A program made the translations under genes and the position numbers. From the NCBI GenBank assembly GCA_041645075.1, contig JBAZQS010000001.1, positions 9,147 through 73,146 of the forward strand: 64,000 nt of DNA. The letters are read 5' to 3'. The stretch is from Patescibacteria group bacterium. GTDB lineage: Bacteria; Patescibacteriota; Patescibacteriia; 2-01-FULL-39-33. Of the stretch, positions 1 to 22,896 are shown one piece after another (position 1 is the first letter of the stretch; the number at the start of each line of letters is the position of its first letter). The notes under the pieces were generated by a model. That model searched no databases, was not told the DNA's origin, and saw nothing but the letters and a program-made list of their open reading frames with translations.

Positions 1-22
1 GCGCGTCTAAGATTAAAAATAT

Positions 23-96
23 GGATCGGTAGCTCAATTGGTTAGAGCGCTGCCCTGTCACGGCAGAGGTCGCGGGTTCAAGTCCCGTCCGGTCCG
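23..96 (+). tRNA. tRNA-Asp (anticodon GTC)
   Basis: Read by eye. Acceptor ggatcgg/ccggtcc (one G-U pair), D-arm gctc...gagc, anticodon stem ctgcc/ggcag with loop ctGTCac, T-arm gcggg-ttcaagt-cccgt, discriminator g. CCA is not encoded. Confidence 0.85.
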
Positions 97-103
97 CGGA
101 CTT

Positions 104-140
104 AAAACAAAAACAGGATTTTAATCCTGTTTTTGTTTTA
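104..140 (+). terminator. Rho-independent terminator after tRNA-Asp
   Basis: Hairpin aaaacaaaaacagga-ttttaa-tcctgtttttgtttt followed by a T-run. Confidence 0.6.
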
Positions 141-305
141 TAATCTGCTGTGCAGATTGGGACTTGAACGGGCAGAAGCGAGACAAATTTTGCGCTGGAT
201 TTTGCCAGCGCAAAATACTGGCGAGCGTAGACAAATGCGACCATAGGAGCATTTGGCTACGCCCAGGGCGAAGAAGCTTGAGCGGAAGCGAGAGCGATGA
301 GAAAT

Positions 306-360
306 GTCCCGTCCGGTCCGAATTCACGAAAACAGAGTTTGATCTCTGTTTTTTGTTTTA
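306..360 (+). repeat. Direct repeat of the tRNA-Asp 3' end (15 nt, 306-320) plus a terminator-like hairpin resembling the one at 104-140
   Basis: gtcccgtccggtccg at 82-96 is identical at 306-320. The hairpin gaaaacagag-tttgat-ctctgttttttgtttta at 328-360 parallels the one at 104-140. Confidence 0.7.
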
Positions 361-422
361 TTTTAAGGTGTATCGGTTGTATTATTCGTATCAATATGAT
401 ACGATTAAGTAGTATAAATGAT

Positions 423-1490
423 ATGAACAAAAGTATGGCCAAAGTAGATAAAAAACAACAAACAATCATTAATCTCATATTGGATGGGGCTGTTTTGTCA
501 TCTTCAAAAATACACCAAAAGATGACAAAAGCAGGAGAAGATGTCTCTCTAATAACAGTCAAAAGAATTTTAACTCAGATGGTTAATGCTGGCCTGCTGG
601 ATAAAAGCGGCGCTGGACGCACGACTATTTATGCGGTAGGCATTAAAGGAAGAATATTATCTGACGTTAAAGCTAAAGAATATTGCAGCGTTGAGCCGGA
701 TAAGCGCACAGGATTAAAAGGACATAATTTTGGATTATTTAAAAATATTCCGGAAGATATTTTCAGTCAGGAAGAATTAAAAATTTTAAATGAAGCCACC
801 GCTCGATACCATCAACGAACTAAAGATTTATCCTCGGTTATTGAAAAAAAGGAATTAGAGCGTTTGATTATTGAGTTGTCTTGGAAATCGTCCAAAATCG
901 AAGGGAATACCTATACCTTGCTTGATACAGAAAAATTGATTTTAGAGAATAAGGAAGCGCCCGGGCACGACCCAAAAGAAGCGCGGATGATTTTAAACCA
1001 TAAAGAGGCCTTTAATTATGTCCGTGAACACGCCGATAAATTTAAAACTTTGACTCGTAAAAATTTAGAAGAGCTGCACTCGATTTTAGTTAAAGGTTTG
1101 AGTGTGGAATTGGGACTGCGAAAAAGGCCGGTGGGTGTTTTGGGTTCGATTTATCGACCACTTGATAATGCCCAGCAAATTTTTGAAGCCGTGGAAGCTT
1201 TAGGCGGGGCGATAATAAAAATGACGGATCCCTATGCCAAGGCGTTAATTGCTATTTTAGGCCTGAGCTATATTCAACCGTTTGAGGATGGCAATAAAAG
1301 AACATCGCGTCTTTTGGCTAACGCCACGCTTTTGGCGTATGGCTGTGCTCCTCTTTCATACCGCAGTGTTGATGAAAACGATTATCGTGAAGCGATTTTG
1401 GTTTTTTATGAGCTCAATTCCGTTATGCCGTTTAAGAAAATATTCATTTCGCAGTATGAATTTGCGGCTAATAATTATGCGGTGAAATAG
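423..1490 (+). CDS. Fic/Doc family protein with N-terminal winged-HTH; degenerate catalytic motif (QPFEDGNKRTSR in place of HPFx[DE]GNGRxxR)
   Basis: ORF 297..1490. The N-terminal extension overlaps the tRNA repeat and hairpin, so the start is more likely M at 396, 423 or 435. Inhibitory-helix-type motif SSKIEGN is present; the Fic core motif lacks the His and has GNKR. Confidence 0.75.
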   Translation: MNKSMAKVDKKQQTIINLILDGAVLSSSKIHQKMTKAGEDVSLITVKRILTQMVNAGLLDKSGAGRTTIYAVGIKGRILSDVKAKEYCSVEPDKRTGLKGHNFGLFKNIPEDIFSQEELKILNEATARYHQRTKDLSSVIEKKELERLIIELSWKSSKIEGNTYTLLDTEKLILENKEAPGHDPKEARMILNHKEAFNYVREHADKFKTLTRKNLEELHSILVKGLSVELGLRKRPVGVLGSIYRPLDNAQQIFEAVEALGGAIIKMTDPYAKALIAILGLSYIQPFEDGNKRTSRLLANATLLAYGCAPLSYRSVDENDYREAILVFYELNSVMPFKKIFISQYEFAANNYAVK

Positions 1491-1511
1491 CGGGTTTTTT
1501 GATATAAAAAG

Positions 1512-1538
1512 AACCAGAAATGAGATTTTCTGGTTCCA
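1512..1538. terminator. Bidirectional terminator hairpin between convergent genes
   Basis: aaccagaaa-tgagatt-ttctggtt flanked by a T-run and an A-run. Confidence 0.55.
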
Positions 1539-1554
1539 GGTAGAAAGGATAAAA

Positions 1555-1788
1555 TTAGATTTGATAATCTGCCTTATCATCTTTCATCCAGCCGATTGGG
1601 ATTTTGTTCCAAATGCGTTCATGAAAATAGTACAAAACAATTTTTGTGAAAATTTCTACCAGACCAATCGTGAGGGCGAGTTTTACGCGGCCGGTGACAA
1701 AAAATGAAATTACCATAGTGTCTAAGGTGCCGGTCAGCCGCCAAGATATGGCTTTGACAATGCTCCGCCAATGTCTTTCTTTGATCAT
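1555..1788 (-). CDS. Small membrane protein, DUF2061-like
   Basis: 77 aa with two hydrophobic helices and motifs SWRLTGT...YYFHERIW typical of DUF2061. Recalled family; not searched. Confidence 0.55.
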   Translation of the reverse strand: MIKERHWRSIVKAISWRLTGTLDTMVISFFVTGRVKLALTIGLVEIFTKIVLYYFHERIWNKIPIGWMKDDKADYQI

Positions 1789-1967
1789 CGCGTCTAAATC
1801 CTCTCTATTGGGAATTATTATACTTACTTGTTTGTCAGTATTTGACCATAAGATAGCACGCCGGTATGCTTTTGTAAAGAAGTGAATTTAAGCCATGGCT
1901 TAAAATAAAAATCCCCCGTCCCAATGTCACATGGGGGCGGGGGTGATTTGTTTAAATGAAGTCCTTT

Positions 1968-2789
1968 TTAGGGCTTAGCCGATGAAAGGGGACCGGAAGT
2001 TTCGTCTTGGATTGAGAGCGCTGGCTTTGGCCCAAAGTCCATAAATTGGTCGGTATCGCCTATCGCCCAATCTTTGGTCGAAATCTGATAGTTGCCTTCC
2101 TCAAGTATTTTTATGGTTTGGTCAATCTGATTAAAGTCAATTTGCATTGCCGCTGATAATCTATCATTTAATTCTTTAACCCTATTGCCAACCGCCTCGG
2201 GAGTCAGTTGGCGCATTTGCGTTTCATCATAGAAGTTGAGCAGGGTCTGGTTTTTTTCCGTGAGCCCTTTTTTAATGGCCGAGCTCCTGGCGACAATCTC
2301 TTTAAGATAATACCTGCGGTTTACGGTTCTAAGGCAGGCCGGGTCGCTTGGGGGCCGGCCGGCTTTTCTCATTTCCGCGTAGGCCTTTATCTCAAATGAT
2401 TCGTTGTGGCGCCATTGCTCGAGCCGGGTTTCGTTGTTTTGAAAATTGATTCGGTTCTGGCGCAACTCGTCAGCAATATTTTTAAGACCGGGTGGTAAAT
2501 TATTAATCGGTGATATTTCAATACCATAACCTGATTCAATGCCCTGGCCTAAATCATTAGGTAGGGGAATATAATTGGCGGAGGTGATTTTGGCGTGTTG
2601 GCCCCAGAATTTTTTCGGCCTAAAGTGCTGCCAGGTGGCCAAGCTGGCGGTGGCGATCAGGGCGATTATCGTTATGGTCATCTTGATGGAAGTTCTCGAC
2701 GGCAACTGCGGTTCCGGTGGCGATGTTACCGGTAACCCCTCGCACATGGCCGGCGGTGGCGGCGGTTCCTCACCATTTAACTGTTTCAT
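1968..2789 (-). CDS. Mosaic-family membrane/secreted protein D (Pro-rich N-terminus, TM, KFWG motif shared with the 4989..6263 protein)
   Basis: 273-aa ORF. N-terminal EEPPPPP...TM...RPKKFWGQHAKITS parallels PKCKFWGKQAASAT in the 4989..6263 protein. Alternative start at M near 2683. Confidence 0.6.
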   Translation of the reverse strand: MKQLNGEEPPPPPAMCEGLPVTSPPEPQLPSRTSIKMTITIIALIATASLATWQHFRPKKFWGQHAKITSANYIPLPNDLGQGIESGYGIEISPINNLPPGLKNIADELRQNRINFQNNETRLEQWRHNESFEIKAYAEMRKAGRPPSDPACLRTVNRRYYLKEIVARSSAIKKGLTEKNQTLLNFYDETQMRQLTPEAVGNRVKELNDRLSAAMQIDFNQIDQTIKILEEGNYQISTKDWAIGDTDQFMDFGPKPALSIQDETSGPLSSAKP

Positions 2790-2924
2790 TGGCTTTCTCC
2801 CTTTTTAATTTGTTTCAAATGGCAACTATTATTTAGGTTTTTAAGGTGCTGATTATTAGTTTATATATATAACAAAAAAGATTTTTTGTCAAATTCAGAT
2901 TTTATTTATTTTAGCAAAAAATTT

Positions 2925-2952
2925 CCCCGCGCGCTTTTATGAGTTTGCGGGG
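2925..2952. terminator. Terminator hairpin downstream of gene 2997..3815
   Basis: ccccgcgcgc-ttttatgagttt-gcgggg. Confidence 0.5.
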
Positions 2953-2996
2953 AAATAGATTATTTTTGCCGGCAGATTTTATTGTTGCCGGCCCGG

Positions 2997-3815
2997 TCAT
3001 TCTTTGGCCGCTATTTTTCCTCGGAGTTTGTCCAAAATCGGTTGAAGAGCAATTTTTAGCTTCTCCCGCTCTTCCTGGCTCATTTGGAAAAATTCTGATT
3101 TGGTTCGGTTTAAAAGAGCGTTGTTTGGAATTGGCAATCCCAGAACGCGATAGTAAATTCCCTGCGGTTCGGGCCGTTCCAAGTCAAACCAAGAGACCAG
3201 ATTATTTTTATCCAACATCGCGGGAAAAGTATTGGCTGGCGGCGTCATTGGTTCCTGGGAAAGAATATCAATTGTCCTTGCCAGTTCGCTGATTAGAAAT
3301 TGTTTTTTCTTGTCTACCGGTGGATTGATGGCGACAGGAACTGGCGTGGATAATGGGTCCGGTTGAGTGGCGACGGTTTTTTTAGGAGCGGGAGTTGGAG
3401 TTGGAGCGGCGAATATTTTTGCCGCCGGTTCCGTTGATTGAGGCGGCCTAAAAAAATCAACTTGGGGCGCTTTGTTTTCTTGAAAGCCGTAGTTATTGCT
3501 TGAGCCGTTCCAGTTATAGCCGTTCCAGCCCTCGCCATAGCCGGTTCTATTTCGGGAAATTTTGACGATGGCTTCAGTGGCCAAATCTCTGGCTTCGGGG
3601 TCTTTAATGGTGGCGGCCGAGAGAATGCCAGCGGTTTCATCTAAATGGCCGCCATAGCGCATCGCCACCTGGCCGGAATCCACTCGGCCGGCCGGGTCGC
3701 CATACTTCAATGTTTCGGCCGGAGAATGAAACCGGCTCGCGCTGGTCTGAAATTGGTTGTCTGTTTGGGCGCAGGCAGCCAAAAAAAACAAGCCGACAAA
3801 CACCGAGAATTTCAT
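2997..3815 (-). CDS. Lipoprotein, mosaic family member A (C-terminal ~110-aa domain shared with the 4228..4785 ORF)
   Basis: Signal peptide with lipobox FFLAAC. P/T-rich linker. C-terminal region QFLISELARTIDILSQEPM...EFFQMSQEEREKLKIALQP is near-identical to the 4228..4785 ORF. Confidence 0.7.
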   Translation of the reverse strand: MKFSVFVGLFFLAACAQTDNQFQTSASRFHSPAETLKYGDPAGRVDSGQVAMRYGGHLDETAGILSAATIKDPEARDLATEAIVKISRNRTGYGEGWNGYNWNGSSNNYGFQENKAPQVDFFRPPQSTEPAAKIFAAPTPTPAPKKTVATQPDPLSTPVPVAINPPVDKKKQFLISELARTIDILSQEPMTPPANTFPAMLDKNNLVSWFDLERPEPQGIYYRVLGLPIPNNALLNRTKSEFFQMSQEEREKLKIALQPILDKLRGKIAAKE

Positions 3816-3971
3816 TTTTGGATACCTCCATTTTTCAAATAAATAGATTTCTTGCCTCTTGGTTAATTTTATTAAGGTGCTGACTGATGATTGTTAACTT
3901 AATTTTATTATAGTTATAGAAATTTGTAAATGGTTTTGAGGTATATGTTTTGGTGTATAAATAAAAAAATC

Positions 3972-4002
3972 CCCCGTAAAGTTTTTAGTGAACTTTACGG
4001 GG
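3972..4002. terminator. Conserved terminator hairpin (copy 1)
   Basis: ccccgtaaagtt-tttagtg-aactttacgggg. A near-identical copy lies at 4925..4956. Confidence 0.6.
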
Positions 4003-4033
4003 TATTTATTGGCGTAGTTTTGATTTGCCTGCT

Positions 4034-4785
4034 CTATTCGCTGGGCGTCTCAATAACCTCATCATCAACGGCCGGAGGAGCGGGAGCAGGTATAATTAGG
4101 CGGGTGCAGGTCTTTCGGCGCTTTCTTGGGGCTTCCAAAGCGGCCGACGGTTTTAAGACGATTGACCGCTCTGTTGTAATACTCCTCTTTGGCGTCTTCT
4201 TCATCGCGCATCTGGCGTAACCCGCCGTTAATGTCGCTTTTCCCACTCTTCGCATATCTTGCGTAACCCGTCGTTAAGTTGCTTTTTCCACTCTTCGTGA
4301 GCGGTTAAGCGTTTTTCTGCCAGCGATTTTTTTGGCAGTTGCTGTTGTAAATTTTTCAAAACCGGCTGGAGGGCAATTTTCAGTTTCTCCCGCTCTTCCT
4401 GGCTCATTTGGAAAAATTCTGATTTGGTGCGACTAAGCAAGGACTGATTTTGAATCGGCAGGCCCAGAACGCGGTAGTAAATTCCCTGCGGTTCGGGCCG
4501 TTCCAAGTCAAACCAAGAGACCAGCTTATTTTTATCCAACATCGCGGGAAAGGCATTGGGCGGCGGCACCATTGGTTCTTGGGAAAGAATATCAATGGTT
4601 CTTGCCAGTTCGTTGATTAGAAATTGCGTCTGCTTTTCCGAGAGATGGCCAATCGCAGTAGTCGTGGTTGTGGTTAAAGTCGCTTTTTTTGCGGCTGATT
4701 TTTTTTGTTGAGCCAAGGCATTGGCGCTAAACAAAAAAATGATAACTAAAAACATCACAACTTGTCTCATTTTAATTTCCTCCAC
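4034..4785 (-). pseudogene. Mosaic family member B, frame-disrupted (signal peptide + shared domain X + Y-tail)
   Basis: ORFs 4228..4785 and 4034..4255 are the same gene in different frames. A 46-bp tandem duplication (4215-4260 / 4261-~4300) and a 2-nt deletion near 4085 relative to paralog C break the frame. The conceptual repaired C-terminus matches ...YYGKAIKRLKTVGRFGSPKK...PAPPTVDDEVIEAPSE of 4989..6263. Confidence 0.6.
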
Positions 4786-4924
4786 CTTTTCAAATTTTTT
4801 TAATGCCGAGTTTATGTTTTATTAAGGTGCCAATTTATTATTTATAGGATATAACAAAAAATAGCTTATGTCAAACCAAGTTTGCGCGCGTGCCTAAAAC
4901 AGAGATATTTTTAGTAAAAAAAGT

Positions 4925-4956
4925 CCCCGTAAAGTTCTTGGTGAACTTTACGGGGG
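4925..4956. terminator. Conserved terminator hairpin (copy 2)
   Basis: ccccgtaaagtt-cttggtg-aactttacggggg. Confidence 0.6.
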
Positions 4957-4988
4957 TATTTGTTGGCGTGGCTCTGATTCCGTCTGCT

Positions 4989-6263
4989 TTATTCGCTGGG
5001 CGCCTCAATAACTTCGTCATCAACGGTCGGAGGAGCGGGAGGAGCAGGCACATTGGGCGGGTACAGGTCTTTCAGCGCCTTTTTGGGGCTACCGAAACGG
5101 CCAACGGTTTTAAGGCGTTTGATTGCCTTGCCGTAATACTCCTGTTTAGCCTTTGTTTCTTCGCGCCTCTGACGTAACGCGCCGTCAAGTTCCTTTTCCC
5201 ATTTTTCGTGAGCGATTAAGCGTTTTTCATGATCAGTCAACTGGCTCTCGATTGGCTTGAGCCGTTCGTTGAGTTGCGCGGGTTGGACGGCGGTCCTGGT
5301 TTTGTCCAGGTTATTCCTCTTGGCGGCTAACTCCTCCTTTAGGTTGCCGTCATGCAGAGCTTTTTCGGCCTCGTCCTCGGTCTTGCCATCGGCGATGAGC
5401 TCGACCTTGTCACGAGCATCCAACCCCGCTTTTACCCGTTTGACTTCCGCCCTCACTTGTTTGACTTCCGTCGCCAGTCCATCAAGCGTAATTATTGTCG
5501 TGATGGTGGTGCCGGCGGAAGCAGTGGTCGCACCCTTTTTCTGTGAGGCGGTGACCAACCCGGTCTTCTTGTCCTTGGCTGGCGTTTCCGATTTGGCAGC
5601 GAGCGAAGCTGAGGTTTGAGCGGCCATAACGGCGGTGGCGAGCTTGGCCGGGAGTTCGGCGATTTCCTTCTGGATATCGCCTTGACCCATAGCAATGTCG
5701 ATGAGCTGTTCGACCTGCTCCTTCCTCAAAGGGATGCCGTTTTCCATCATGGACTTACCTAATCCCTGGATGGCCTCGACGATGTCCTTGTTCGCGTTCG
5801 TCGTGGTCGCATGAGCGGTCGTTGTGGCCGTCGCGGAGGCGGCCTGTTTGCCCCAGAATTTGCATTTCGGCCAGGTAAAGTACCCATAGAGAAAACCGGC
5901 GATGGCGACCAGGACGATCATCGTCCAGACGATTTTGCCGAAAGTTCGTGGCGCCGGTGCCGGTTGCGGCGATGGCCGAAACTCAACTCGTGCCGACCGG
6001 GGCCGCCCAAGGGATGGCGCCGGTTGTGCCGTCGATTGCGGTGGCAACTCTTCTTGTGGCGGCGGCACTGCGTGCGACCGACCGGTCTGCGGCGGCGCCT
6101 CGTCTAAAGGCGGCAGCCGAATCTCCTCGTCCAAGGGCGGTTGAGGATTCGGGTTCGGTCCCTGGTCCTCGTGTTCCGGCGGCAGAGTCGGCTGGAGCGA
6201 TTCGGGCGGTGGCGGTTGATTGGCCCGCGGCCGCGATTGATTTTCCCTCTTTGGCTTTGGCAT
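4989..6263 (-). CDS. Mosaic family member C: Pro-rich cytoplasmic N-terminus, single TM, T/A-rich spacer, coiled-coil, conserved Y-tail
   Basis: 424-aa ORF. Architecture: PPPP/PQP low-complexity N-terminus, TM IVWTMIVLVAIAGFLYGYF, ATATTTAHATTT, long charged coiled-coil region. The C-terminus is shared with pseudogene B. Confidence 0.65.
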   Translation of the reverse strand: MPKPKRENQSRPRANQPPPPESLQPTLPPEHEDQGPNPNPQPPLDEEIRLPPLDEAPPQTGRSHAVPPPQEELPPQSTAQPAPSLGRPRSARVEFRPSPQPAPAPRTFGKIVWTMIVLVAIAGFLYGYFTWPKCKFWGKQAASATATTTAHATTTNANKDIVEAIQGLGKSMMENGIPLRKEQVEQLIDIAMGQGDIQKEIAELPAKLATAVMAAQTSASLAAKSETPAKDKKTGLVTASQKKGATTASAGTTITTIITLDGLATEVKQVRAEVKRVKAGLDARDKVELIADGKTEDEAEKALHDGNLKEELAAKRNNLDKTRTAVQPAQLNERLKPIESQLTDHEKRLIAHEKWEKELDGALRQRREETKAKQEYYGKAIKRLKTVGRFGSPKKALKDLYPPNVPAPPAPPTVDDEVIEAPSE

Positions 6264-6436
6264 AATTATGCCCTCCTTTTTCCTTTCAAATTTTAAAATT
6301 GGTTTTAAAGGTTCGGTTTTTTGACTCTTTTTATATGACTAAGGTCCTTTGTTATCGGACTTATCATTGTATCATATAATCATAATTTTGTCAATAGATT
6401 TAATGAGAGTTAATGAATTTTTTGTTTATTTTATTA

Positions 6437-6466
6437 AAAAAACCGCTAAATTTAGCGTTTTTTTAT
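6437..6466. terminator. Bidirectional terminator downstream of rplT
   Basis: aaaaaaaccgctaaatttagcgttttttt palindrome with flanking A-run and T-run. Confidence 0.55.
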
Positions 6467-6495
6467 CAAGAATTATTCAGGAATTATTGAGAAAT

Positions 6496-6840
6496 TTACT
6501 TAATTTTTTCTATTATTTTAGCAAAAATAATTGGTTGTTTCTGGGCGATTTCGGCTAAGACCTTTCGGTCTAATTCTATCTTGGCCTTCTTTAAACCGCC
6601 GATAAATTTACTATAAGAAAGGCCGTGTTCCCTGACCGCGGCATTAAGCTGGATTTGCCATAATTGTCTGGCCGTTCTTTTTTTTGTCCGGCGGTCTCGG
6701 TAAGCATAAACGCCGGCCTTGGTAACGGCGGTCTTGGCTAATTTGATTAATTTTTTTCGGCCCCATTTATAACCCTTGGCTTGTTTTAAGATATTCCGGC
6801 GGTTTTTGGCATGGGTCATTCCTCGTTTTACTCTCGGCAT
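6496..6840 (-). CDS. rplT: 50S ribosomal protein L20
   Basis: 114 aa, MPRVKRGMTHAKNRRNILKQAKGY... a canonical L20 N-terminus. Confidence 0.92.
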   Translation of the reverse strand: MPRVKRGMTHAKNRRNILKQAKGYKWGRKKLIKLAKTAVTKAGVYAYRDRRTKKRTARQLWQIQLNAAVREHGLSYSKFIGGLKKAKIELDRKVLAEIAQKQPIIFAKIIEKIK

Positions 6841-6910
6841 ATTTTTTAAATCTTTAAATTATTATATTGTTTATATTATTAAACCACTAGACCCGATGGA
6901 TATTTATATA

Positions 6911-7087
6911 ATTTTCAATTTTAGAATTTTGAATTTTGAAATAATGATTTAATGTCATCGCGAGCGAAGCCCGAGCGTCAGGAGGGCGAAGCGTGGCGAT
7001 TTTATTGCAGTTAGATTGCTTCGTCGCCGATTACGGCTTCTCGCAATGACAATTTCAAAATTATTTCAAAATTCAAAATTTTTAATT
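6911..7087. repeat. Long imperfect inverted repeat / nested hairpin element (~175 bp) in the rpmI-rplT spacer
   Basis: Left arm ttttgaattttgaaataatgatttaatgtcatcgcgagcgaagcc and right arm ggcttctcgcaatgacaatttcaaaattatttcaaaattcaaaa are reverse complements. The GC-rich core has its own inner hairpin (ggcgaagc...gcttcgtcgcc). Confidence 0.6.
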
Positions 7088-7279
7088 ATAAGGCATTGAT
7101 TGTCTGATGGTTTTTCGGTCTGACTTGGCGATTTGGACGTCGCGCCTTTTATGGCGCTTGGTCTTGCCCGACTCGCGGGCGTTAAAATGGTCTTGGCCGG
7201 CCATTCTTTTTATTATTTTTTTCTTTTTGGTTATTTTGAATCTTTTAGCAACCGCTTGCCGGGTTTTTATTTTTGGCAT
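7082..7279 (-). CDS. rpmI: 50S ribosomal protein L35
   Basis: 65 aa, MPKIKTRQAVAKRFKITKKKKIIKR... Confidence 0.9.
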   Translation of the reverse strand: MPKIKTRQAVAKRFKITKKKKIIKRMAGQDHFNARESGKTKRHKRRDVQIAKSDRKTIRQSMPYN

Positions 7280-7299
7280 GTTTTTAATTTATAAGTTTA

Positions 7300-7360
7300 T
7301 AAGTTACTAAGTTTATAAGTTTTTTCCCCTTAGCGACTCACCAACTTATAAACTTAGTAA
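7300..7360. repeat. Perfect 20-bp inverted repeat hairpin between infC and rpmI
   Basis: agttactaagtttataagtt ... aacttataaacttagtaact with a 20-nt loop. Possible intercistronic regulatory or processing structure. Confidence 0.55.
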
Positions 7361-7367
7361 CTGAATT

Positions 7368-7925
7368 TTAATAGGAAATAATCGCGGAAAATTTATTGCC
7401 CAATTGTTTTAATTCCTGCTCTATTTTTAAAATTTTATTTTCTGATTTTATCTGGATTTCATTGATGGTCCGGCGAATGGTTTCCCGGGCCAAATCCGCA
7501 TGCTGGTTTTCCCGGCCTCTTAATTGGATTTCTATTTTAACCTTGTCGCCGCCTTTTAAAAATTTAATCGCTTGCTCAATCCTAAATGCCATATCATGCT
7601 GGCCGATTCTGGTTGAGAGCTTAATGGTTTTTATTTCAATGGTTTTTTGCTTGGCTTTGGCTTTTCTTTCCATTTTTTCGCGCTGATATTTGAAACTGCC
7701 GTAATTCATAAATTTGGCGATTGGCGTTTCCGCTTTGGGCGAAACCTCAACCAAGTCCAAGCCCCTGGCCTGCGCTTCGGCCAAGGCCCGCTCTTTGGGC
7801 ATTGGGCCGAGATTTTGGCCGTTTTCATCAATAATAATCAGCTCGCGGGTAAAAATTTTTTCATTGATTCGGAATTCTTTGAAAGATTCTTTTTGGAAAT
7901 TTTTTCCTTTGAAGGATTTTCTCAT
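7368..7925 (-). CDS. infC: Translation initiation factor IF-3
   Basis: 185 aa. IF-3 N- and C-domain sequence (ELIIIDENGQNLG...LVEVSP...KFMNYGSFKYQ). Operon order infC-rpmI-rplT. Confidence 0.9.
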   Translation of the reverse strand: MRKSFKGKNFQKESFKEFRINEKIFTRELIIIDENGQNLGPMPKERALAEAQARGLDLVEVSPKAETPIAKFMNYGSFKYQREKMERKAKAKQKTIEIKTIKLSTRIGQHDMAFRIEQAIKFLKGGDKVKIEIQLRGRENQHADLARETIRRTINEIQIKSENKILKIEQELKQLGNKFSAIISY

Positions 7926-8004
7926 TAAAATTGTTTATTTAATTTATTCATCTATATTATTTAATTATACTACAGGCCATTAGCGATTAGCCATAGGCCA
8001 TTAG

Positions 8005-8381
8005 TGGAGATGAGGAGGGTGAACTCCTGTCTAGAAGCCAGACATAAATCAGGATACAAGTTTAGCTCTTTTTTTAAACCAAGGCCTCAAAAAAGAGCAA
8101 AATGGTCTTGGTTGTTCTTGGTAATTTTAAATGATAATTTCCAAGAAAAATTATCACCGAGCCCGATATATGACACCGCTTCTTGCTTATCAGGCCATCA
8201 GCAAGACGATGGCTGTTAAACCTTGTTAGGCAACAGCAGGGGCTAAAGCCAATCCGCGGAAAGCGAATTTTACTTTAGTCAATAAGTTTTTTGCACTTAT
8301 GTTTTGATAATTAGTTTGCGAGCAATTATCAATCTCGCCTTGCTAATTTATGGCTTAGCTTCTATCGAAACAGACATCCCC
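8005..8381 (-). ncRNA. ssrA: tmRNA (SsrA)
   Basis: On the minus strand the 5' end GGGGATGTCTGTTTCGATAG resembles the E. coli tmRNA 5' end (GGGGCUGAUUCUGGAUUCGAC). The 3' end AGGAG-TTCACC-CTCCT-CATCTCCA forms a T-arm plus acceptor pairing with the 5' GGGGATG. A GCA resume-like codon sits at nt 88-90, as in E. coli. It opens a frame ...FAFRGLALAPAVA-TAA. Immediately downstream of and co-oriented with smpB. Confidence 0.75.
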
Positions 8382-8399
8382 GAATTGAAAATTTATCGT

Positions 8400-8855
8400 T
8401 TATCTTTTCAATGACCTTCGTATTTCCCTGTCCGCTTCTCTCTTTTTAATACTTTCCCGCTTATCAATTTTGGTTTTGCCTTTGGCTAAGGCGATATCAA
8501 CCTTGATTAATCCCTTTATAGTATATACGGCAGTGGGTATAATTGTCAACCCCTTTTGTTTGCTTTTGCCGATCAAGGAATTAATTTCTTTCTTGCGCAA
8601 AAGCAATTTTTTTTGGCGCTCCGGCTGATAATTGGCTTGGACATTTTGCGCCGGCTTATAGCGGGCAATATGGCAATTGACCAGCCAAAGCTCGCTCTGG
8701 CCGTCAATAATGACATAGCTGCCCTTCAAGCTGATTTGCCCGCCCTTGACCGATTTAACTTCCGGCCCGGTTAAAACAATTCCGGCTTGGTATGTTTCAA
8801 TAACTTCATAATTAAAAAGCCCCTCCTTGTTTTGGTTGATGATTTTTTTTGACAT
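8400..8855 (-). CDS. smpB: SsrA-binding protein SmpB
   Basis: 151 aa, ...YEVIETYQAGIVLTGPEVKS...GLTIIPTAVY... typical SmpB. Confidence 0.9.
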   Translation of the reverse strand: MSKKIINQNKEGLFNYEVIETYQAGIVLTGPEVKSVKGGQISLKGSYVIIDGQSELWLVNCHIARYKPAQNVQANYQPERQKKLLLRKKEINSLIGKSKQKGLTIIPTAVYTIKGLIKVDIALAKGKTKIDKRESIKKREADREIRRSLKR

Positions 8856-8927
8856 AGCATTAATATTCTTCCTCTTGACCTCGGCTTATAACTACGGTAT
8901 AATTTAATTAAATTAATATTTATATCC

Positions 8928-9986
8928 GTGGCGGCTCAAAGCAATCAGAAAAACATTACCATTAATATTTCTTCGTTAACCTTGATGAAGGTCTTGTTTA
9001 TCATTGCCTTGGTCGGACTGCTGTTTTATATTAAAAGCGTTTTATTAATAATTTTTGTGGCTTTGATTTTGGCGTCGGCGCTTGACCCGTGGGTGGATTG
9101 GCTGCAAAAACATAAAATTCCCCGATCCTTTAGCATTCTTCTGATTTATTTGGTTTTACTGTCGGTTATCGGCGGCATTATTTATTTAATCATACCACCA
9201 ATAGTCAAGGAAGTGAACCAGTTAACCGCCGACTTTCCGGTCTATTGGCAAAATATAATTAAGACCTTTGCCGATTTTCAAAATTATTCCGACAGTCACG
9301 GCTGGTCAGCCAATATTCAGAGTTCTTTAAAAGTCCTGCAAACCAATATCGGCGGAGTAGCGGGCGATGTTTTTAGCACTATATTTTCTTTCTTTGGCGG
9401 CGTCATTTCATTTCTTATTATTTTAGTGATCACTTTTTATCTCACCGTAGAAGAAAAATCCCTAAAACGACTAATTCGTTCGCTCGTGCCCGTAAAGTAT
9501 CAGCCCTATTTTACCCACTTGGTTAATCGGATACAAGAGAAAATCGGCCAATGGTTGCGCGGCCAGCTAATACTTTCTTTGATAATTTTTGTGGTTGTTT
9601 TTTTGGGGTTGACGATTTTGGGCGTAAAATATGCTTTGGTCTTGGCCTTGTTTGCCGGTATTACTGAATTGATTCCTTATCTGGGGCCGACCATTGGCGC
9701 CATTCCGGCGGTTTTTATCGCTTTCACTCAATCACCCATGCTCGCTCTTTTTGTGATTTTACTTTATATTTTAGTTCAATTTTTGGAAAATCATATTATC
9801 GTGCCCAAAGTCATGCAGAAAGCGGTCGGACTTAATCCGGTGGTGGTAATCGTGGCCATGCTGATTGGCGCTAAATTGGCCGGTATCTTGGGCGTGATTT
9901 TAGCCGTGCCCGTGACCACGGCCCTGGGCGTTATTTTGAGCGACTTTATTGAAATAAAACAGGAAGAGGGGGATATAGAAGTATAA
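8928..9986 (+). CDS. AI-2E family transporter (PerM/UPF0118) membrane protein
   Basis: 352 aa, multiple TM helices, motif GITELIPYLGPTIGAIP characteristic of the family. Confidence 0.8.
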   Translation: MAAQSNQKNITINISSLTLMKVLFIIALVGLLFYIKSVLLIIFVALILASALDPWVDWLQKHKIPRSFSILLIYLVLLSVIGGIIYLIIPPIVKEVNQLTADFPVYWQNIIKTFADFQNYSDSHGWSANIQSSLKVLQTNIGGVAGDVFSTIFSFFGGVISFLIILVITFYLTVEEKSLKRLIRSLVPVKYQPYFTHLVNRIQEKIGQWLRGQLILSLIIFVVVFLGLTILGVKYALVLALFAGITELIPYLGPTIGAIPAVFIAFTQSPMLALFVILLYILVQFLENHIIVPKVMQKAVGLNPVVVIVAMLIGAKLAGILGVILAVPVTTALGVILSDFIEIKQEEGDIEV

Positions 9987-10073
9987 TAGAAGTATAAATG
10001 TTAAAATTTACATATATATAATAAATAAATTTTTGACGGGTTTGGAAAAACCCTCAAAATAAAGGACAAAGAA

Positions 10074-10625
10074 ATGGTTTACAAAAAAAGTCGACAACAA
10101 ATGTCAGAAATGATTGATGATGACCAAGAGGCCAAAGATTTCGGTTCTCGGGGCGGCCATAAGGGCGGGAAATTAGGCCGGGTTATTATTACTCTCGTGG
10201 TAATAATAATTATTGTGGTTGGGGGTTGGTATTTGCTGGGTAGATACACCAACATTAGTTTGCCGGGTCTTGGCGGCCAGGCCTCTAATGATTGGCAAGC
10301 GGTATTTTTATCCAATGGCCAAGTTTATTTCGGGAAAATTAAAGCTGCTTCAAAGAAGCAAGTCGTCTTGGCCGACATCTATTACCTTCAAGTAGTAGAG
10401 GTGCCTCTGCAAACAACTCAAACAGGCGCGGGCGAGGCGCCTAAAACCCAACAGGAATTAAAGCTGATCAAATTGGGCAATGAACTGCACGGGCCGGTTG
10501 ATGAAATGATTATCAATCCCGACCATGTATTGCTCACCGAAAGATTAAAAAATGATTCCCGCGTCGTTCAGGCCATAAACAACTATTTGGCCGAGCAAAA
10601 GAAGGCGGCCGCGCCAAAGAAATAG
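10074..10625 (+). CDS. Hypothetical single-pass membrane protein
   Basis: 183 aa. Charged N-terminus, one TM (VIITLVVIIIIVVGGWYLL), soluble C-domain. A strong terminator follows at 10645-10690. Confidence 0.6.
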   Translation: MVYKKSRQQMSEMIDDDQEAKDFGSRGGHKGGKLGRVIITLVVIIIIVVGGWYLLGRYTNISLPGLGGQASNDWQAVFLSNGQVYFGKIKAASKKQVVLADIYYLQVVEVPLQTTQTGAGEAPKTQQELKLIKLGNELHGPVDEMIINPDHVLLTERLKNDSRVVQAINNYLAEQKKAAAPKK

Positions 10626-10644
10626 GTTAATCGTTTTTTTACCA

Positions 10645-10690
10645 ATCCCGACCCGCCCCCCACTTTATTAAAGTGGGGGGCGGGGTTTTT
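10645..10690 (+). terminator. Rho-independent terminator
   Basis: ccgacccgccccccactttattaaagtggggggcggggttttt. Confidence 0.7.
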
Positions 10691-10730
10691 GGTTATGGGC
10701 GCAATGGTGCGGGATGAATTATTTTATGAT

Positions 10731-10927
10731 ATAATTTCATTGAGCTGGTTACAAAACTATATTTCTCTAAATTTGTCCTTTTCGGCTGCGACTGCGTCGG
10801 GCTGGCGCAAAAAGATTTTCACCGTAGCCGCTGCTACGGCTCAAATCTTTTTCCTGGCCCTCCTTGTCTCGCTCAAAAAGTCCTAAATTTATAGATAAAA
10901 TAGTTTTGTAACCAGCTCATTATAAAT
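10731..10927 (+). repeat. IR-flanked ~197-bp element (20-bp perfect terminal inverted repeats); candidate structured sRNA (6S-like) or MITE
   Basis: atagttttgtaaccagctca at 10741-10760 (as reverse complement) and at 10899-10918. A TATAAT-like box at 10728-10733 lies just upstream. The GC-rich structured interior has a local hairpin ccgtagc-cgct-gctacgg. Confidence 0.45.
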
Positions 10928-10937
10928 ATCGTCTAAA

Positions 10938-11996
10938 ATGGAAGAGAAAAAAATCAGAAAAAAGTCATTAGCGAAGATTGGGAGCGATAAAATAGCTAAA
11001 AGGCAGACGGAAAAGACAGCGGCGGACAAATTAGCTGAAGGAAACGAGCTTTTCTTGGGCAATGGTTTTGGTTACTTAACTTTAAACTCGGCGACGAAAG
11101 GAACTTCATTTAGCGTGAGCTATTTAACGGGTGTGGCTCGCCAGGGAAGGCTCAAGGCCTTTAAGGTGGGCGATGATTGGCTTACGACAAGAGAATGGTT
11201 TGTTGAATTTCAAAAAACCATAAAAGAAAAAGTGGAAAATGAAATTTTAAGCGATGGCTGGGTCGTTGATTCGGGCCGCGCCTTTGAAAATCAATGGGTT
11301 AAACTTTCTCCAAAGAAAAAAAGAATTAAATTTAATTTTAAATTGCCGGTAAAATATTCTTTGGCGGCGGTTTTGTTAGTGGCAATCATCGGCAATAGCG
11401 CCATCTTTACTAAAAGCCAGCCGGATAGAGCGTATAATTTTTTAATTCGCGCCGGTAAAATATCGGACCGCAGATTTATGGTGGCTAATAATTTTTTAAC
11501 TATCACCAACTTGGTTTATGGGTTTCCCTTAAAAGCCGGAATCTCGGCGCAGTTAAAATATTTTTCATTTCTAAATGGCTTTAGCGGGGGAGTATTATAT
11601 TCTTTAAATAACTTTAATCACTCTATTTTAAAAGGCGGCGATTATACGGTGTCGGAAGTCAGACGGGTGGGTCTGGCTTTGGCTTATGCCGGCCGATTAG
11701 CCGGTAATTTAAAATTTTCCGATGAAAAAATAACCGGGTCTTGGCATAATTTTGTCCAGAACGGCCGCTGGTCACGCCAGATGGCTCTTCAATGGGAAAA
11801 AATCGCCGGTTTCAATATGGCTGGGATATTTTCTAGGGGCAGGGTCGCCGGGGCGAGCGCTTCATTTAATAATGATGGCGCCGACGTTAAAAATTATAAA
11901 AATTCGTTATCAAAGGTTTTTTCCCATTGGGCGGTCGGCCAAATTGATAATATTCAGAAAATTCTTGAACAGGTAAAAAACTTATTAGATAAATAA
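10938..11996 (+). CDS. Hypothetical protein with N-terminal excisionase/MerR-type HTH, TM segment and C-terminal domain
   Basis: 352 aa. HTH-like YLTLNSATKG...LTTREWFVEFQ. TM AAVLLVAIIGNSAIF. Confidence 0.6.
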   Translation: MEEKKIRKKSLAKIGSDKIAKRQTEKTAADKLAEGNELFLGNGFGYLTLNSATKGTSFSVSYLTGVARQGRLKAFKVGDDWLTTREWFVEFQKTIKEKVENEILSDGWVVDSGRAFENQWVKLSPKKKRIKFNFKLPVKYSLAAVLLVAIIGNSAIFTKSQPDRAYNFLIRAGKISDRRFMVANNFLTITNLVYGFPLKAGISAQLKYFSFLNGFSGGVLYSLNNFNHSILKGGDYTVSEVRRVGLALAYAGRLAGNLKFSDEKITGSWHNFVQNGRWSRQMALQWEKIAGFNMAGIFSRGRVAGASASFNNDGADVKNYKNSLSKVFSHWAVGQIDNIQKILEQVKNLLDK

Positions 11997-12135
11997 GGCC
12001 GTTAAATCAGCTGTCTTTGGCTTATTGCCAAAATTGAATTTTTCGGATAAGATTTACCCTGTGGAATGGCTATGCCAAAATTTTTGCCACAGCAAAAATT
12101 TTATTCCACAGGGTGAAGGCACTAATTTTTTTATT

Positions 12136-13536
12136 ATGGCGCCGGAAAAAAACGATTTAATGCCGAAAATTATTTCTCTCTGCAAGCGAAGGGGGATAAT
12201 TTTTCAATCGTCGGAAATTTATGGCGGCTTGGCCAACACCTGGGATTATGGCCCGGTCGGCGTGGAATTGAAAAATAATATAAAAAAGGCCTGGTGGAAA
12301 TATTTTGTCCAGGCGCGGGAAGACATGGTCGGCCTAGACGCGGCGATTTTTATGAATCCGGAGGTCTGGAAGGCCTCGGGCCATATAGACGGATTTTCTG
12401 ACGCCCTGATTGATTGCAAAGAATGCCAAGCCAGATTCAGAGCCGACCAATTAATTGAAGAAATATTGAATATGAGAGTTGATGGCAAGACGGTTGAAGA
12501 GCTGAATTCGATTATTGGGGAAAATAAATTAACCTGCCCGGCTTGCGGCGCTAAAAATTTTACCGAAGCCCGCCGTTTTAATTTGATGTTTAAAACATAT
12601 CAGGGCGTGATTGAAGATGACTCGTCAATAATTTATTTACGGCCGGAGACGGCGCAAGGCATCTTTGTGAATTTTAAAAATGTTTTGGCGTCAAGCCGAA
12701 AGAAACTGCCTTTTGGCATCGCGCAAATCGGCAAGTCATTCAGAAACGAGATTACGCCCGGCAACTTTATCTTCCGCACCCGCGAGTTTGAACAGATGGA
12801 AATAGAATATTTTATCAATCCGAAAAGCGATTGGGAGGAAAAGTTTAAAGAACTTCAGGAATTGATGTGGGGATTTTATATGGCCTACGGCGTGAAGGAA
12901 GAAAATTTAAAATGGCGCCAGCATGGCCAAAATGAATTGTCGCATTATTCAAAAATGACTTTTGACCTTGATTATAATTTTCCTTTCGGCTGGAAAGAAT
13001 TGGACGGCATTGCTTATCGCGCGGATTTTGATTTAGCCCAGCACCAAAAGCATTCAGGCGAGGATATGTCATATTTTGACCCGGAAACAAAGGAAAATTT
13101 TATTCCCCATTGTCTTGAGCCGACTTTCGGCGTTGATCGGAATGCGCTGGTTTTTTTATTGGACGCGTATCAAGAAGAGGAAGCGCCGACCGCCGACGGC
13201 GAGATGGAAACGCGAGTGGTTTTAAAATTACATCAAGACATCGCCCCGATTAAAATTGCGGTTTTGCCTTTATCAAAGAAAGATGACTTATCACAACTCT
13301 CCAAAGAGGTCTGGAAGAAATTATCGCCGCATTGGCAAACTGAATATGATGAGACGCAAAGCATCGGCAAAAGATATCGCCGGCAAGATGAGATTGGCAC
13401 GCCTTATTGCGTCACGGTTGATTTTGAAAGTTTGGCCGATAAGGCCGTCACCATCCGAGACCGAGACACCATGAAGCAGGATAGGGTGAAAATAGATGAA
13501 TTGGTCGGTTATTTTAAAGGTAAGTTTGGTTGCTAA
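12136..13536 (+). CDS. glyQS: Glycine--tRNA ligase (alpha2 dimeric type)
   Basis: The ORF is annotated from 12025, but the conserved N-terminus starts at MAPEKND...LCKRRGIIFQSSEIYGGLANTWDYGPVG (ATG at 12136). Class II motifs and a C-terminal anticodon-binding domain are present. Confidence 0.88.
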   Translation: MAPEKNDLMPKIISLCKRRGIIFQSSEIYGGLANTWDYGPVGVELKNNIKKAWWKYFVQAREDMVGLDAAIFMNPEVWKASGHIDGFSDALIDCKECQARFRADQLIEEILNMRVDGKTVEELNSIIGENKLTCPACGAKNFTEARRFNLMFKTYQGVIEDDSSIIYLRPETAQGIFVNFKNVLASSRKKLPFGIAQIGKSFRNEITPGNFIFRTREFEQMEIEYFINPKSDWEEKFKELQELMWGFYMAYGVKEENLKWRQHGQNELSHYSKMTFDLDYNFPFGWKELDGIAYRADFDLAQHQKHSGEDMSYFDPETKENFIPHCLEPTFGVDRNALVFLLDAYQEEEAPTADGEMETRVVLKLHQDIAPIKIAVLPLSKKDDLSQLSKEVWKKLSPHWQTEYDETQSIGKRYRRQDEIGTPYCVTVDFESLADKAVTIRDRDTMKQDRVKIDELVGYFKGKFGC

Positions 13537-13551
13537 AATTGAAAATTATTT

Positions 13552-18896: not shown

Positions 18897-19020
18897 GCAT
18901 TATCACTAAAACACAAAAGCACAGAAAACACAGAAAGCACAAAAACGTAGACCAGATAGTTGTTTCTATGTTTTTGTGTTTTTGTGCTTTAGTGCTTTTG
19001 TGATTTCTGTTGCGGGGGCC
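18897..19020. repeat. Imperfect hairpin / repeat block (cacaaaagcacagaaa motifs) upstream of tRNA-Met copy 1
   Basis: aaaacacaaaagcacagaaaacacagaaagcacaaaaac ... gtttttgtgtttttgtgctttagtgcttttgtg are approximately reverse-complementary. The block is ~75% identical to 21076-21185. Confidence 0.6.
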
Positions 19021-19029
19021 GGATTCGAA

Positions 19030-19102
19030 CCGGCGACCTGCGGGTTATGGGCCCGCCGAGCTGCCAACTGCTCTACCCCGCGTCATTTTTAAACTTTTAT
19101 TA
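19030..19102 (-). tRNA. Initiator tRNA-fMet (anticodon CAT)
   Basis: CGCGGGG-TA-GAGC-AGTTGGCA-GCTC-G-GCGGG-CCCATAA-CCCGC-AGGTC-GCCGG-TTCGAAT-CCGGC-CCCCGCA-A. C1-A72 mismatch and GGG/CCC anticodon stem as in E. coli tRNAfMet. Confidence 0.85.
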
Positions 19103-19385
19103 TTTTAGCATAGAATTGCCGCTTTGGCAAGAAACGGTCACAAAAACAAAAAAACACAAAAGCACAAAAAAACATGGAAACAGGAAAATGAAAATTACAG
19201 AAAAAATAAAGTATTAATTAAATTAATTTTTTTGTTTTAATATTTTCGTGTTCCAATGTTTTGATTTTATTTTAAAATAGAGGTATAATTTAAAGTAGTT
19301 TATCGTCGATTTGAATTATTATTTCCTATAACTATCAGCTTCAGTAAATAATTAATTTAAACATTTAATTACTTATTTATTAACC

Positions 19386-21194: not shown

Positions 21195-21962
21195 ATGGGA
21201 CAAATAATTTCTGTCGTCAATCAAAAGGGCGGAGTCGGCAAGACCACCACCTCAATTAACCTCGCGGCTTATCTAAGTAAATTAGGTAAGTTTGTTTTGT
21301 TGGTGGACTTAGACCCGCAGAGCAACGCCACTTCCCATCTGGGCATTTCCCGCGAATTGGACCGGGGCGTTTATGAGGTTTTGACCGGCCCGTATTCTTT
21401 CAGGGATATTGTGGTGGACACCCAGCATGATTTTTACAAATTAGCGCCGTCCACTCAGTCCTTGGCTGGCGCCAATGTGGAATTTGTCAATTTGGACCGC
21501 CGCGAATTCCGTTTATATGATAATTTATTGGAAATAAGAAATGATTTTGATTATATCATTATTGATTGCCCGCCCTCTCTCGGCCTCTTGACTATCAATG
21601 GCTTAGTGGCGTCTGATAGAATATTAATACCGGTTCAAGCCGAATATTTTTCTTTGGAAGGGCTTGGCCAATTAATGTCTACGATTAATCTAATTCAGGA
21701 AAACGTCAAGCCCGAGCTTGATATTTTAGGCGTGGTTTTAACGATGTATGACCGCCGTTGTCGTTTAGCCAATGATGTCTTACAAGAAGTTTATCGTCAT
21801 TTCCCAAATAAAATTTTCCGCTCGGTTATTCCTAGAAATGTCCGCTTATCCGAGGCGCCGAGTTATGGCCAGACGATTTTAAATTATGACCCGAAGTCAA
21901 AAGGCGCCAAGGCGTATGAACGTTTAGCCAGAGAATTTGTCCAATATACCACTTCCCACTAA
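21195..21962 (+). CDS. parA: Chromosome partitioning ATPase ParA/Soj
   Basis: Start at MGQIISVVNQKGGVGKTTT (Walker A KGGVGKTT); the ORF track start at 21126 is an upstream extension. Confidence 0.9.
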   Translation: MGQIISVVNQKGGVGKTTTSINLAAYLSKLGKFVLLVDLDPQSNATSHLGISRELDRGVYEVLTGPYSFRDIVVDTQHDFYKLAPSTQSLAGANVEFVNLDRREFRLYDNLLEIRNDFDYIIIDCPPSLGLLTINGLVASDRILIPVQAEYFSLEGLGQLMSTINLIQENVKPELDILGVVLTMYDRRCRLANDVLQEVYRHFPNKIFRSVIPRNVRLSEAPSYGQTILNYDPKSKGAKAYERLAREFVQYTTSH

Positions 21963-21972
21963 CTTTAATTTT

Positions 21973-22896
21973 ATGCAAAAAATTTCCGGATTGGGCCGCG
22001 GTCTTGGCTCATTGATTCCCCATAAAAAAAGCTTGTCCCCAACCACGATTGGGGATAAGCTTGTCCCCAACCACGATTGGGGAATTGCGTCGGAAAATAA
22101 TAATGAATTTGCCTCTCTTGCCGATGGCCAGGAAAAAATTATTCCCTTGCCGGTTGATAAAATTTCGCCCAATCCCCATCAGCCTAGAAATAATTTTTCC
22201 GAAGAGAGTTTGCGGGAATTAATGGACTCAATCAAAGAGCATGGCATTATTCAGCCATTGATCGTTACCAAAGAAGGGGATGGTTGGCAATTAATCGCCG
22301 GTGAAAGAAGGTGGCGCGCGGCCAAGGCCTTAAAAATGGCAACCGTGCCGGCCATTATCCGCGATATGACCGAACAGAAAAAATTAGAAATTGCTTTGAT
22401 TGAAAATTTACAGCGCCAGGATTTAAATGCCTTAGAAACGGCGGCCGCCTATCGAAAATTAATTGACGAGTTTAATTTGACGCAGGAGCAATTGGCCAAG
22501 AGAATCGGCAAGAGCCGTCCGGCCGTGTCCAATACGATTCGTATTTTATCGGCGGCCGAAGAAGTAAAACAGGCAATTTTACAAGAAAAAATTACCGCCG
22601 GGCACGCGCGGGTCTTGGCCGGCTTGCCCAAAGAGGACCAACTGCTCTTGCTGCAAAAGATTATTGAGAGCACCATGAATGTCCGCGAGGCCGAGCGGGC
22701 CAGCCGAAATATCGTTATCCAAAAGCATATTCGCAATCTTCCGTTTTATCCGGATATTGAAGCGAAAAAGGATTTGCTCCAAGAGGTCTTGGCCACAAAA
22801 GTGGAAATAAAAAAATCCGGCGGCAGTGGCCAGATTATTATTAAATTTTATTCCGAGGAGGAATTGGAAAGTATTTTTAAGAAAATAGTTAATTAG
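21973..22896 (+). CDS. parB: Chromosome partitioning protein ParB (N-terminal region contains a 28-bp tandem direct repeat)
   Basis: MQKISGLGRGLGSLIP N-terminal motif. ParB box ...QPLIVTKEGDGWQLIAGERRWRAAKAL..., HTH. Tandem copies of aagcttgtccccaaccacgattgggg at 22029-22054 and 22057-22082. Confidence 0.88.
   Translation: MQKISGLGRGLGSLIPHKKSLSPTTIGDKLVPNHDWGIASENNNEFASLADGQEKIIPLPVDKISPNPHQPRNNFSEESLRELMDSIKEHGIIQPLIVTKEGDGWQLIAGERRWRAAKALKMATVPAIIRDMTEQKKLEIALIENLQRQDLNALETAAAYRKLIDEFNLTQEQLAKRIGKSRPAVSNTIRILSAAEEVKQAILQEKITAGHARVLAGLPKEDQLLLLQKIIESTMNVREAERASRNIVIQKHIRNLPFYPDIEAKKDLLQEVLATKVEIKKSGGSGQIIIKFYSEEELESIFKKIVN

Follow-up and report, generated by a model that had tools for sequence, protein, structure and literature searches.

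Gene cluster and the D-domain family

Four tandem genes are located on the minus strand of the window (the whole 64-kb stretch of DNA that was analysed), namely, 1968..2789 (273 aa), 2997..3815 (272 aa), 4034..4785 (hereafter locus A), and 4989..6263 (424 aa). The region carries the locus tags WC610_00065 to WC610_00085 of the Patescibacteria MAG. The cluster sits between core genes of the rplT/rpmI/infC/smpB type and a gene for a Fic-domain protein, and its G+C content (window 2000-6300) is 0.45-0.50 vs. ~0.40 in the flanks. In contig L001, which originates from another assembly, T4SS pilin-like genes (TrbC) were found just beyond the window start. Scans of the four cluster proteins against Pfam and NCBIfam revealed nothing above threshold. 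The cluster is predicted to encode lineage-specific secreted or membrane proteins. The genes and the main parts of locus A are as follows:

1968..2789, minus strand: 273-aa protein, the conserved downstream partner of D-domain genes in contigs L002, L003, and L004
2997..3815, minus strand: 272-aa predicted lipoprotein with a LAAC lipobox and a C-terminal D domain, a paralog of the locus A core
3972..4002, minus strand: intrinsic terminator hairpin and T-run, duplicated together with the tail (counterpart at 4925-4955)
4034..4227, minus strand: tail remnant of the 424-type C-terminal tail, ...QMRDEEDAKEEYYNRAVNRLKTVGRFGSPKKAPKDLHPPN / PAPAPPAVDDEVIETPSE and stop, now effectively a 3' UTR
4228..4770, minus strand: retained ORF of 180 aa (MRQVV...EEWEKRH, stop TAA at 4230..4228), taken from the ORF list
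4348..4635, minus strand: D domain, 96 aa, orphan, mostly helical, 85% aa identity to the copy at 3024-3311
4711..4770, minus strand: predicted Sec signal peptide MRQVVMFLVIIFLFSANALA with an AxA cleavage motif, deduced from the translation
4846..4874, minus strand: promoter-like site TTGACA-17-TATCCT upstream of locus A
4989..6263, minus strand: 424-aa paralog with a Pro-rich N-terminus, one predicted TM helix, a coiled-coil-like region, and the intact tail; source type of the locus A 3' end

The 180-aa ORF of locus A is deposited in NCBI as the hypothetical protein WC610_00080 (MFA4871456.1), and both the NCBI and ENA annotations give this truncated ORF. Its ATG at 4770 is preceded, eight nt upstream, by the ribosome-binding site GGAGG (4783..4779). 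The signal peptide is conserved in the related contig L002 and has no match elsewhere in the cluster. For the 180-aa product, AlphaFold modelled a mostly helical structure (pLDDT 71.5, with values <50 at residues 1-40), and no PDB fold matched this model with E<=0.001. The 5' coding region of locus A also contains a T7 run at 4684-4690 and a T8 run at 4699-4706 (A7 and A8 on the coding strand), which encode QQKKSAAKKA. The lengths of these runs are the same in the window and in contigs L001 and L006, and are A6 and A7 in L002.

A profile search with the D domain in the HMMER program against 1.84 billion representative proteins yielded 11 representatives with E<1e-10, and a word-indexed search of 5.8 billion proteins found five D relatives. 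Most of the representatives are SGC-lipobox lipoproteins with a length of 190-420 aa. The D domain is C-terminal in every complete representative, the exception being the truncated fragment P0017. An alignment of 12 members gave the conserved pattern FL..EL....L..E.M...L....L.SWFDLERPE.Q..YY......RTKSEF. Locus A shows the layout of the family, i.e., an N-terminal signal and D as the C-terminal domain, and its product ends 40 aa after D. The D gene is directly followed by a homolog of the 273-aa gene in the case of the 272-aa gene and in L002, L003, and L004 (Candidatus Staskawiczbacteria). Such a partner is absent immediately downstream of locus A, where the 272-aa gene is located instead.

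A comparison is offered by L002, a Hainich groundwater contig of 1300 nt. Its ortholog of locus A encodes 144 aa, is intact, ends 8 residues after D, and represents the only D copy there. This gene resembles locus A through the D domain and then continues with the short C-terminus and downstream sequence of the 272-aa gene. The L002 gene thus indicates that a tail-less protein consisting of a signal peptide and D is a natural, viable form. When L002 was compared with window 2444-5041, a single hybrid D gene was seen and window 3028-4352 was missing; this is consistent with recombination (deletion) between two D copies.

Tandem repeat and frame-breaking lesions in locus A

Analysis using TRF revealed a tandem array at 4210-4297 (period 46, 1.9 copies, 88% matches, 2% indels, score 139), which has the top score in the window. 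Arrays with a period >=20 and a score >=100 appeared in 0 of 30 composition-preserving Markov shuffles. The tandem repeat reported in the first-pass annotation is therefore borne out. Its period of 46 bp holds to the left of 4232 on the plus strand, but not to the right of 4232, where the copies are spaced by 45 nt according to repeat family D7 and frame translation. The repeat units and the lesions are as follows:

4252..4296, minus strand: duplication unit 1, 45 nt, translated as EEWKKQLNDGLRKIC (TRF, frame translation, and unit comparison)
4206..4251, minus strand: duplication unit 2, 46 nt, i.e., 45 nt plus an extra base at 4232, containing the stop 4230..4228
4232, minus strand: inserted base, A on the coding strand and T on the plus strand; a +1 shift by which TAA enters the frame (comparison of unit 1, unit 2, and the paralog)
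4086..4096 (approximately), minus strand: second lesion, net -2 nt relative to the paralog, in a Pro/Ala-rich linker (paralog alignment and frame translation)

The 424-aa paralog contains a single 45-nt unit, EKWEKELDGALRQRR, without the extra base. Since the unit of the paralog is 45 nt long and lacks that base, the most economical parse is an in-frame duplication of 45 nt (15 codons) and a separate 1-nt insertion in unit 2. Through the insertion at 4232, CGA CTT AAC becomes CGA CAT TAA, which gives rise to the stop at 4230..4228; without the extra base, unit 2 would translate as EEWEKRLNGGLRQMR. The first-pass annotation had ascribed the frame shift to the duplication itself. The stop is indeed made within the repeat, but the duplication most simply preserves the frame, and the stop comes from the separate insertion. 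The two units differ at 6 of 45 positions (13% diverged, 87% identical), which indicates that the duplication is not recent. In unit 1, the unit that is translated, all five unit-specific substitutions are non-synonymous (5/5, counted by eye from the three unit sequences).

Frame translation of the minus strand reproduced the three-frame behaviour described at first pass. Frame 0 of locus A (ORF 4228..4785) ends with ...KRLTAHEEWKKQLNDGLRKICEEWEKRH and a stop, the next frame continues as ...LNGGLRQMRDEEDAKEEYYNRAVNRLKTVGRFGSPKKAPKDLHPPN, and the third frame ends with ...IIPAPAPPAVDDEVIETPSE and a stop. When aligned to the 3' end of 4989..6263 (window 4895-5245), locus A has 46 nt in excess of the paralog and a gap of 2 nt. 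The second deletion of 2 nt, previously placed near 4085, was recovered as the net loss of two nucleotides at ~4086-4096. The length of the Pro/Ala-rich linker differs also in a tail fragment at the edge of contig L002, the sole other known tail copy. The sequence context is GAC[A]TTAAC for the extra base and AATTATACC for the second lesion; neither is a homopolymer or a simple repeat.

Other repeats were observed elsewhere in the window. A perfect 28-nt tandem repeat in two copies, AAGCTTGTCCCCAACCACGATTGGGGAT, is present at 22029-22084 within the plus-strand ORF 21937..22896, in the 5' linker of a ParB-like gene. Although 28 is not divisible by 3, it is only with both copies in place that the N-terminal motif GLGRGLGSLIP of this gene and the downstream IIPLPVDKISPNPHQPR share a frame. 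The 28-nt unit holds a 7-6-7 palindrome, TCCCCAA-CCACGA-TTGGGGA, found nowhere else in the window, which may be a parS-like site. In addition, a putative minus-strand tRNA gene (recognised by eye) lies at 18900-19175 between inverted A/C-rich repeats of the type CACAAAAACACAGAAAG, and a similar A/C-rich repeat is found at 21087-21121.

The state of locus A in other assemblies was assessed by contig comparison. L001 (ENA ERZ27249422, MEGAHIT k141_165608, 39 kb) differs from window 1-14755 by 20 SNPs and 0 gaps, with no SNPs within 806-7499. L008 (ENA ERZ27247322, MEGAHIT k141_17038) is 100% identical over 4308..2185, a stretch that covers both lesions, and Logan contig L006 (SRR8449827) covers 6673..4522 with 0 gaps. 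T4232 is carried by both L001 and L008. No length differences were found at the consensus level among the window, L001, L006, and L008 where they overlap. The agreement of three assemblies (the NCBI/JGI MAG contig and two from ENA), which possibly represent related samples or one study, argues against an assembler artefact and against length variation at the consensus level. Both lesions thus appear to be fixed in locus A at this level.

The SNPs between L001 and the window are strongly clustered, at 803-805, 7500-7587, 8137-8140, and 13917-13923, with 12 of the 20 falling inside an 88-nt stretch of the infC-like gene (7368..7925). This distribution suggests recombination patches or consensus differences of strain mixtures and not uniform divergence.

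An error of assembly or sequencing, such that the real gene would contain a single unit and be free of frame breaks, deserves consideration, since the paralogous repeats around the locus (D copies 86% identical, tails ~80% identical) make it prone to assembler errors. It is nevertheless highly improbable: the MAG contig and the two MEGAHIT contigs from two ENA accessions agree across both lesions, the indels lie outside homopolymers, and the differences between the units at 6 positions exclude a collapsed or duplicated k-mer.

A phase-variable contingency gene, as the first-pass annotation had proposed among its alternatives, would gain and lose a unit or a single base reversibly and thereby toggle the C-terminal tail. 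The tandem repeat is located at the very point where the frame breaks, the product is predicted to be secreted or exposed on the surface and is encoded in a multigene cluster that undergoes recombination, and the A8 and A7 runs are present at 4684-4706 in the 5' coding region. In addition, contig L008 ends only 10 nt away from the duplicated segment, perhaps because the assembly graph branches there. However, two units that are 13% diverged and carry an internal indel are a poor substrate for slippage, and the frame-changing sites are outside homopolymers and arrays of identical short units. The frame would stay broken after loss of a unit, given that a unit comprises 45 nt and that the shift is due to a single base in the non-repetitive GAC[A]TTAAC; the second lesion would have to revert too. 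The consensus lengths are the same across the assemblies covering each site, A-runs included, and the two further assemblies are free of gaps at both lesions. A literature search on phase variation in Patescibacteria found nothing relevant. The non-repetitive lesions, the diverged units, and the need for two reversions make classical phase variation very unlikely, and this part of the earlier proposal was not upheld.

Programmed recoding was also considered, i.e., two +1 ribosomal frameshifts or transcriptional slippage yielding a protein with D and tail alongside the short one. Both lesions are equivalent to +1 shifts, the first of them puts a stop exactly at the shift point, as in prfB, and the omega of the tail is still low (see below). 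The sequences at the two sites, AAG CGA CAT TAA CGG and AAT TAT ACC TGC, speak against such a mechanism: CAT TAA C and TAT ACC are unable to re-pair in +1, neither site has a slippery P-site codon or an A/T run >=7, and an AGGGGG-type or Shine-Dalgarno-like stimulator is absent at the right distance. Moreover, two consecutive events would be required, and the search of 5.8 billion proteins yielded no other gene with D and tail in which the arrangement might be conserved. Recoding can hardly be credited on this evidence.

Mosaic composition and selection

Locus A combines sequences of different origin. Its last ~80 codons and its terminator are of the 424-aa gene type: the tail of 4989..6263, which has an uninterrupted frame in the 424-aa gene, aligns over 4034-4317 with 78-90% nucleotide identity, and the tail and terminator repeats of the two genes (D2, D3, D5, D8, and D12) are 78-90% identical, 3' spacer included. 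The D domain is absent in the 424-aa protein. It is shared with the 272-aa gene through the D1 repeat (3028-3314 and 4352-4638, 86% nucleotide identity). The description of locus A as a family member paralogous to 4989..6263 consequently holds for the last ~80 codons and the terminator, but not for the core domain, which is from another family and is common to 2997..3815.

As for the 5' side, a permutation test revealed similarity between the upstream regions of locus A and the 273-aa gene (z=9.3, 68% identity), while the comparison with the upstream region of the 272-aa gene was not significant (z=0.6). The homologous upstream regions, 2790-2935 and 4771-4914, both contain TTGACA, a 17-nt spacer, and a TAT-type -10 element, followed by GCACCTTAA. 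This promoter-like module is conserved in the Hainich relative (L002 130-320 and 800-980); the 272-aa and 424-aa genes do not have it.

The dS values of the borrowed halves are 0.50 for D and 0.52 for the tail, and their near equality suggests that the halves were assembled at about the same time. A single tandem duplication of ~1.3 kb that begins midway through the 424 tail and extends as far as the end of D was evaluated as the origin of the chimera. It is favoured by the equal dS of the halves and by the collinear terminator and start codon, but is not supported as it stands, since the upstream region of locus A resembles that of the 273-aa gene (z=9.3) and not that of the 272-aa gene (z=0.6).

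Relatives of the tail are scarce. When the C-terminal 275 aa of the 424-aa protein were used as a query against 5.8 billion proteins, only the protein itself was returned, so that it is an orphan. Pattern searches of metagenome contigs (EKRL[IT]AHE and others, GRFGSPKK / APP[TA]VDDE) gave no tail relatives. An intact ortholog with D and tail was found neither in the search of 5.8 billion proteins nor in scans of JGI metagenome and GTDB genome contigs. In the Rfam scan of 1800-6600, the only match was a sub-threshold one of a miRNA model on the terminator hairpin, which is due to chance.

The 156 nt of the tail in restored frames show dS of 0.52 and omega of 0.26 relative to the paralog; this pairwise value, obtained without an outgroup, mixes the constrained 424 branch with the branch of locus A. 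Differences at the three codon positions number 8/4/16, the excess at third positions being significant (P=0.008). In the 14-residue tail core RLKTVGRFGSPKKA, there are 7 synonymous and 0 non-synonymous changes (counted by eye). The low omega, the third-position excess, and the 7/0 core, part of which signal comes from the 424 branch, suggest that the tail may have been translated and constrained for most of the time since copying and that the frameshifts would be comparatively late; the evidence for full translation of the fusion is the codon-position statistics from these 156 nt.

An antisense ORF on the plus strand (3945-4220) overlaps the decayed tail; in the ENA contig, it is annotated as a gene of 91 aa. 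The intact 424 tail is overlapped by a comparable antisense ORF, 4890..5177. The 91-aa call is probably spurious because the two antisense ORFs differ in frame across the 2-nt indel.

In the 5' part of locus A, codons 1-138 show dS of 0.25, dN of 0.04, and omega of 0.16 in comparison with the L002 ortholog, and omega of the D domain vs. the 272-aa paralog is 0.19. By these ratios, the retained 5' 543 nt (the 180-aa ORF) is under purifying selection. Complete loss of function of locus A, with the 180-aa ORF merely not yet disrupted, would agree with an extra D copy that has no adjacent 273-type partner of its own and with omega ~1 in the retained stretch of tail homology. It is, however, unlikely in view of omega of 0.16 for codons 1-138 (L002) and 0.19 (paralog), of the intact promoter-like site, Shine-Dalgarno sequence, start codon, and predicted signal peptide, and of the intact gene for the same signal peptide and D as the only D copy of L002. 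The earlier suggestion of a decaying paralog can accordingly be kept for the 3' ~195 nt (4034-4227), but not for the 5' 543 nt, which retain an intact ORF, a ribosome-binding site, a signal peptide, and a complete domain with omega of 0.16 (L002) and 0.19 (272-aa paralog).

Proposed history and comparison with known systems

Taken together, these data indicate, with a probability of roughly 0.8, that locus A is a mosaic gene with a fixed C-terminal truncation, the tail of which is a decaying remnant and not the subject of switching. The gene is composed of a 273-type promoter region, an unmatched signal peptide, a 272-type D domain, and the last ~80 codons and terminator of the 424 type. After the fusion, the tail was probably in frame and constrained for most of its history. 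An in-frame tandem duplication of 15 codons in a helical linker would then have been tolerated, and the 1-nt insertion at 4232 in the distal unit would have introduced the TAA stop later. The net -2 indel at ~4090 would have broken the frame again. The present product is predicted to be a 180-aa secreted protein consisting of the signal peptide, D, and a 40-residue helix, and this truncated product is probably the functional form. The truncation would have restored the usual layout of the family, with D at the C-terminus, leaving the former tail untranslated ahead of the retained terminator.

For annotation, the appropriate description of locus A is that of a chimeric gene which is truncated and followed by a 3' remnant. 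The locus defines an orphan domain family that is very narrow and has a conserved partner gene, and it provides a small, clean example of how surface-protein genes of Patescibacteria may be built and trimmed by module duplication, fusion, and recombination. The truncation itself is ordinary and of a kind already known, and it opens no new mechanism.

A more far-reaching reading, which we regard as quite improbable, is that the cluster might serve an episymbiotic lineage of Patescibacteria as a recombinational cassette system for its surface proteins, operating slowly. Its modules (promoter, D, and tail with terminator) would be swapped among tandem genes, as in the L002 recombinant. If so, gene conversion with the intact 424 tail, at a distance of 950 bp, as the donor could repair the silent tail, which would then be toggled on a population time-scale.

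Under the preferred reading, that of a mosaic gene with a fixed truncation, locus A is similar to frameshift-truncated paralogs and gene remnants in that the ancestral frame can be read from the intact paralog, the locus is disrupted by small indels, and the homology is still recognisable. It is also similar to chimeric genes arising from segmental duplication and fusion, since it joins the 5' part of one family to the 3' part and terminator of a neighbour. Unlike usual gene remnants, locus A loses only the borrowed 3' module; its 5' ORF is constrained and returns to the architecture of the family, which is not gene death.

Contingency loci such as the CTCTT repeats of Neisseria opa and the tetranucleotide repeats of Haemophilus consist of homopolymers or of short identical units in high number, and their length is heterogeneous. 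Locus A shares with them a repeat inside a surface-protein gene at the place where the frame changes. It differs in having two diverged 45-nt units, a shift caused by a non-repeat base, a second lesion, and no length variation between assemblies.

In the programmed +1 frameshift of prfB (RF2), an in-frame stop lies at the shift site within a slippery context of the CUU-UGA type, and an upstream SD sequence acts as a stimulator. Locus A likewise has an in-frame stop at the shift site and needs a +1 shift to continue. In contrast to prfB, it lacks both the CUU-UGA-type context and the SD stimulator, would require two shifts, and was seen in no relative.

Finally, Mycoplasma vlp/vsa and Borrelia vls are recombining multigene families of surface lipoproteins. 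The cluster described here differs from them in that neither high-frequency switching nor silent cassettes nor site-specific recombinases are in evidence, and its modules are 78-87% identical and not near-identical. It resembles these families in that its tandem surface-protein genes share exchangeable modules (promoter, D, and tail with terminator), and in that a natural relative, L002, carries a recombinant between the two D copies.
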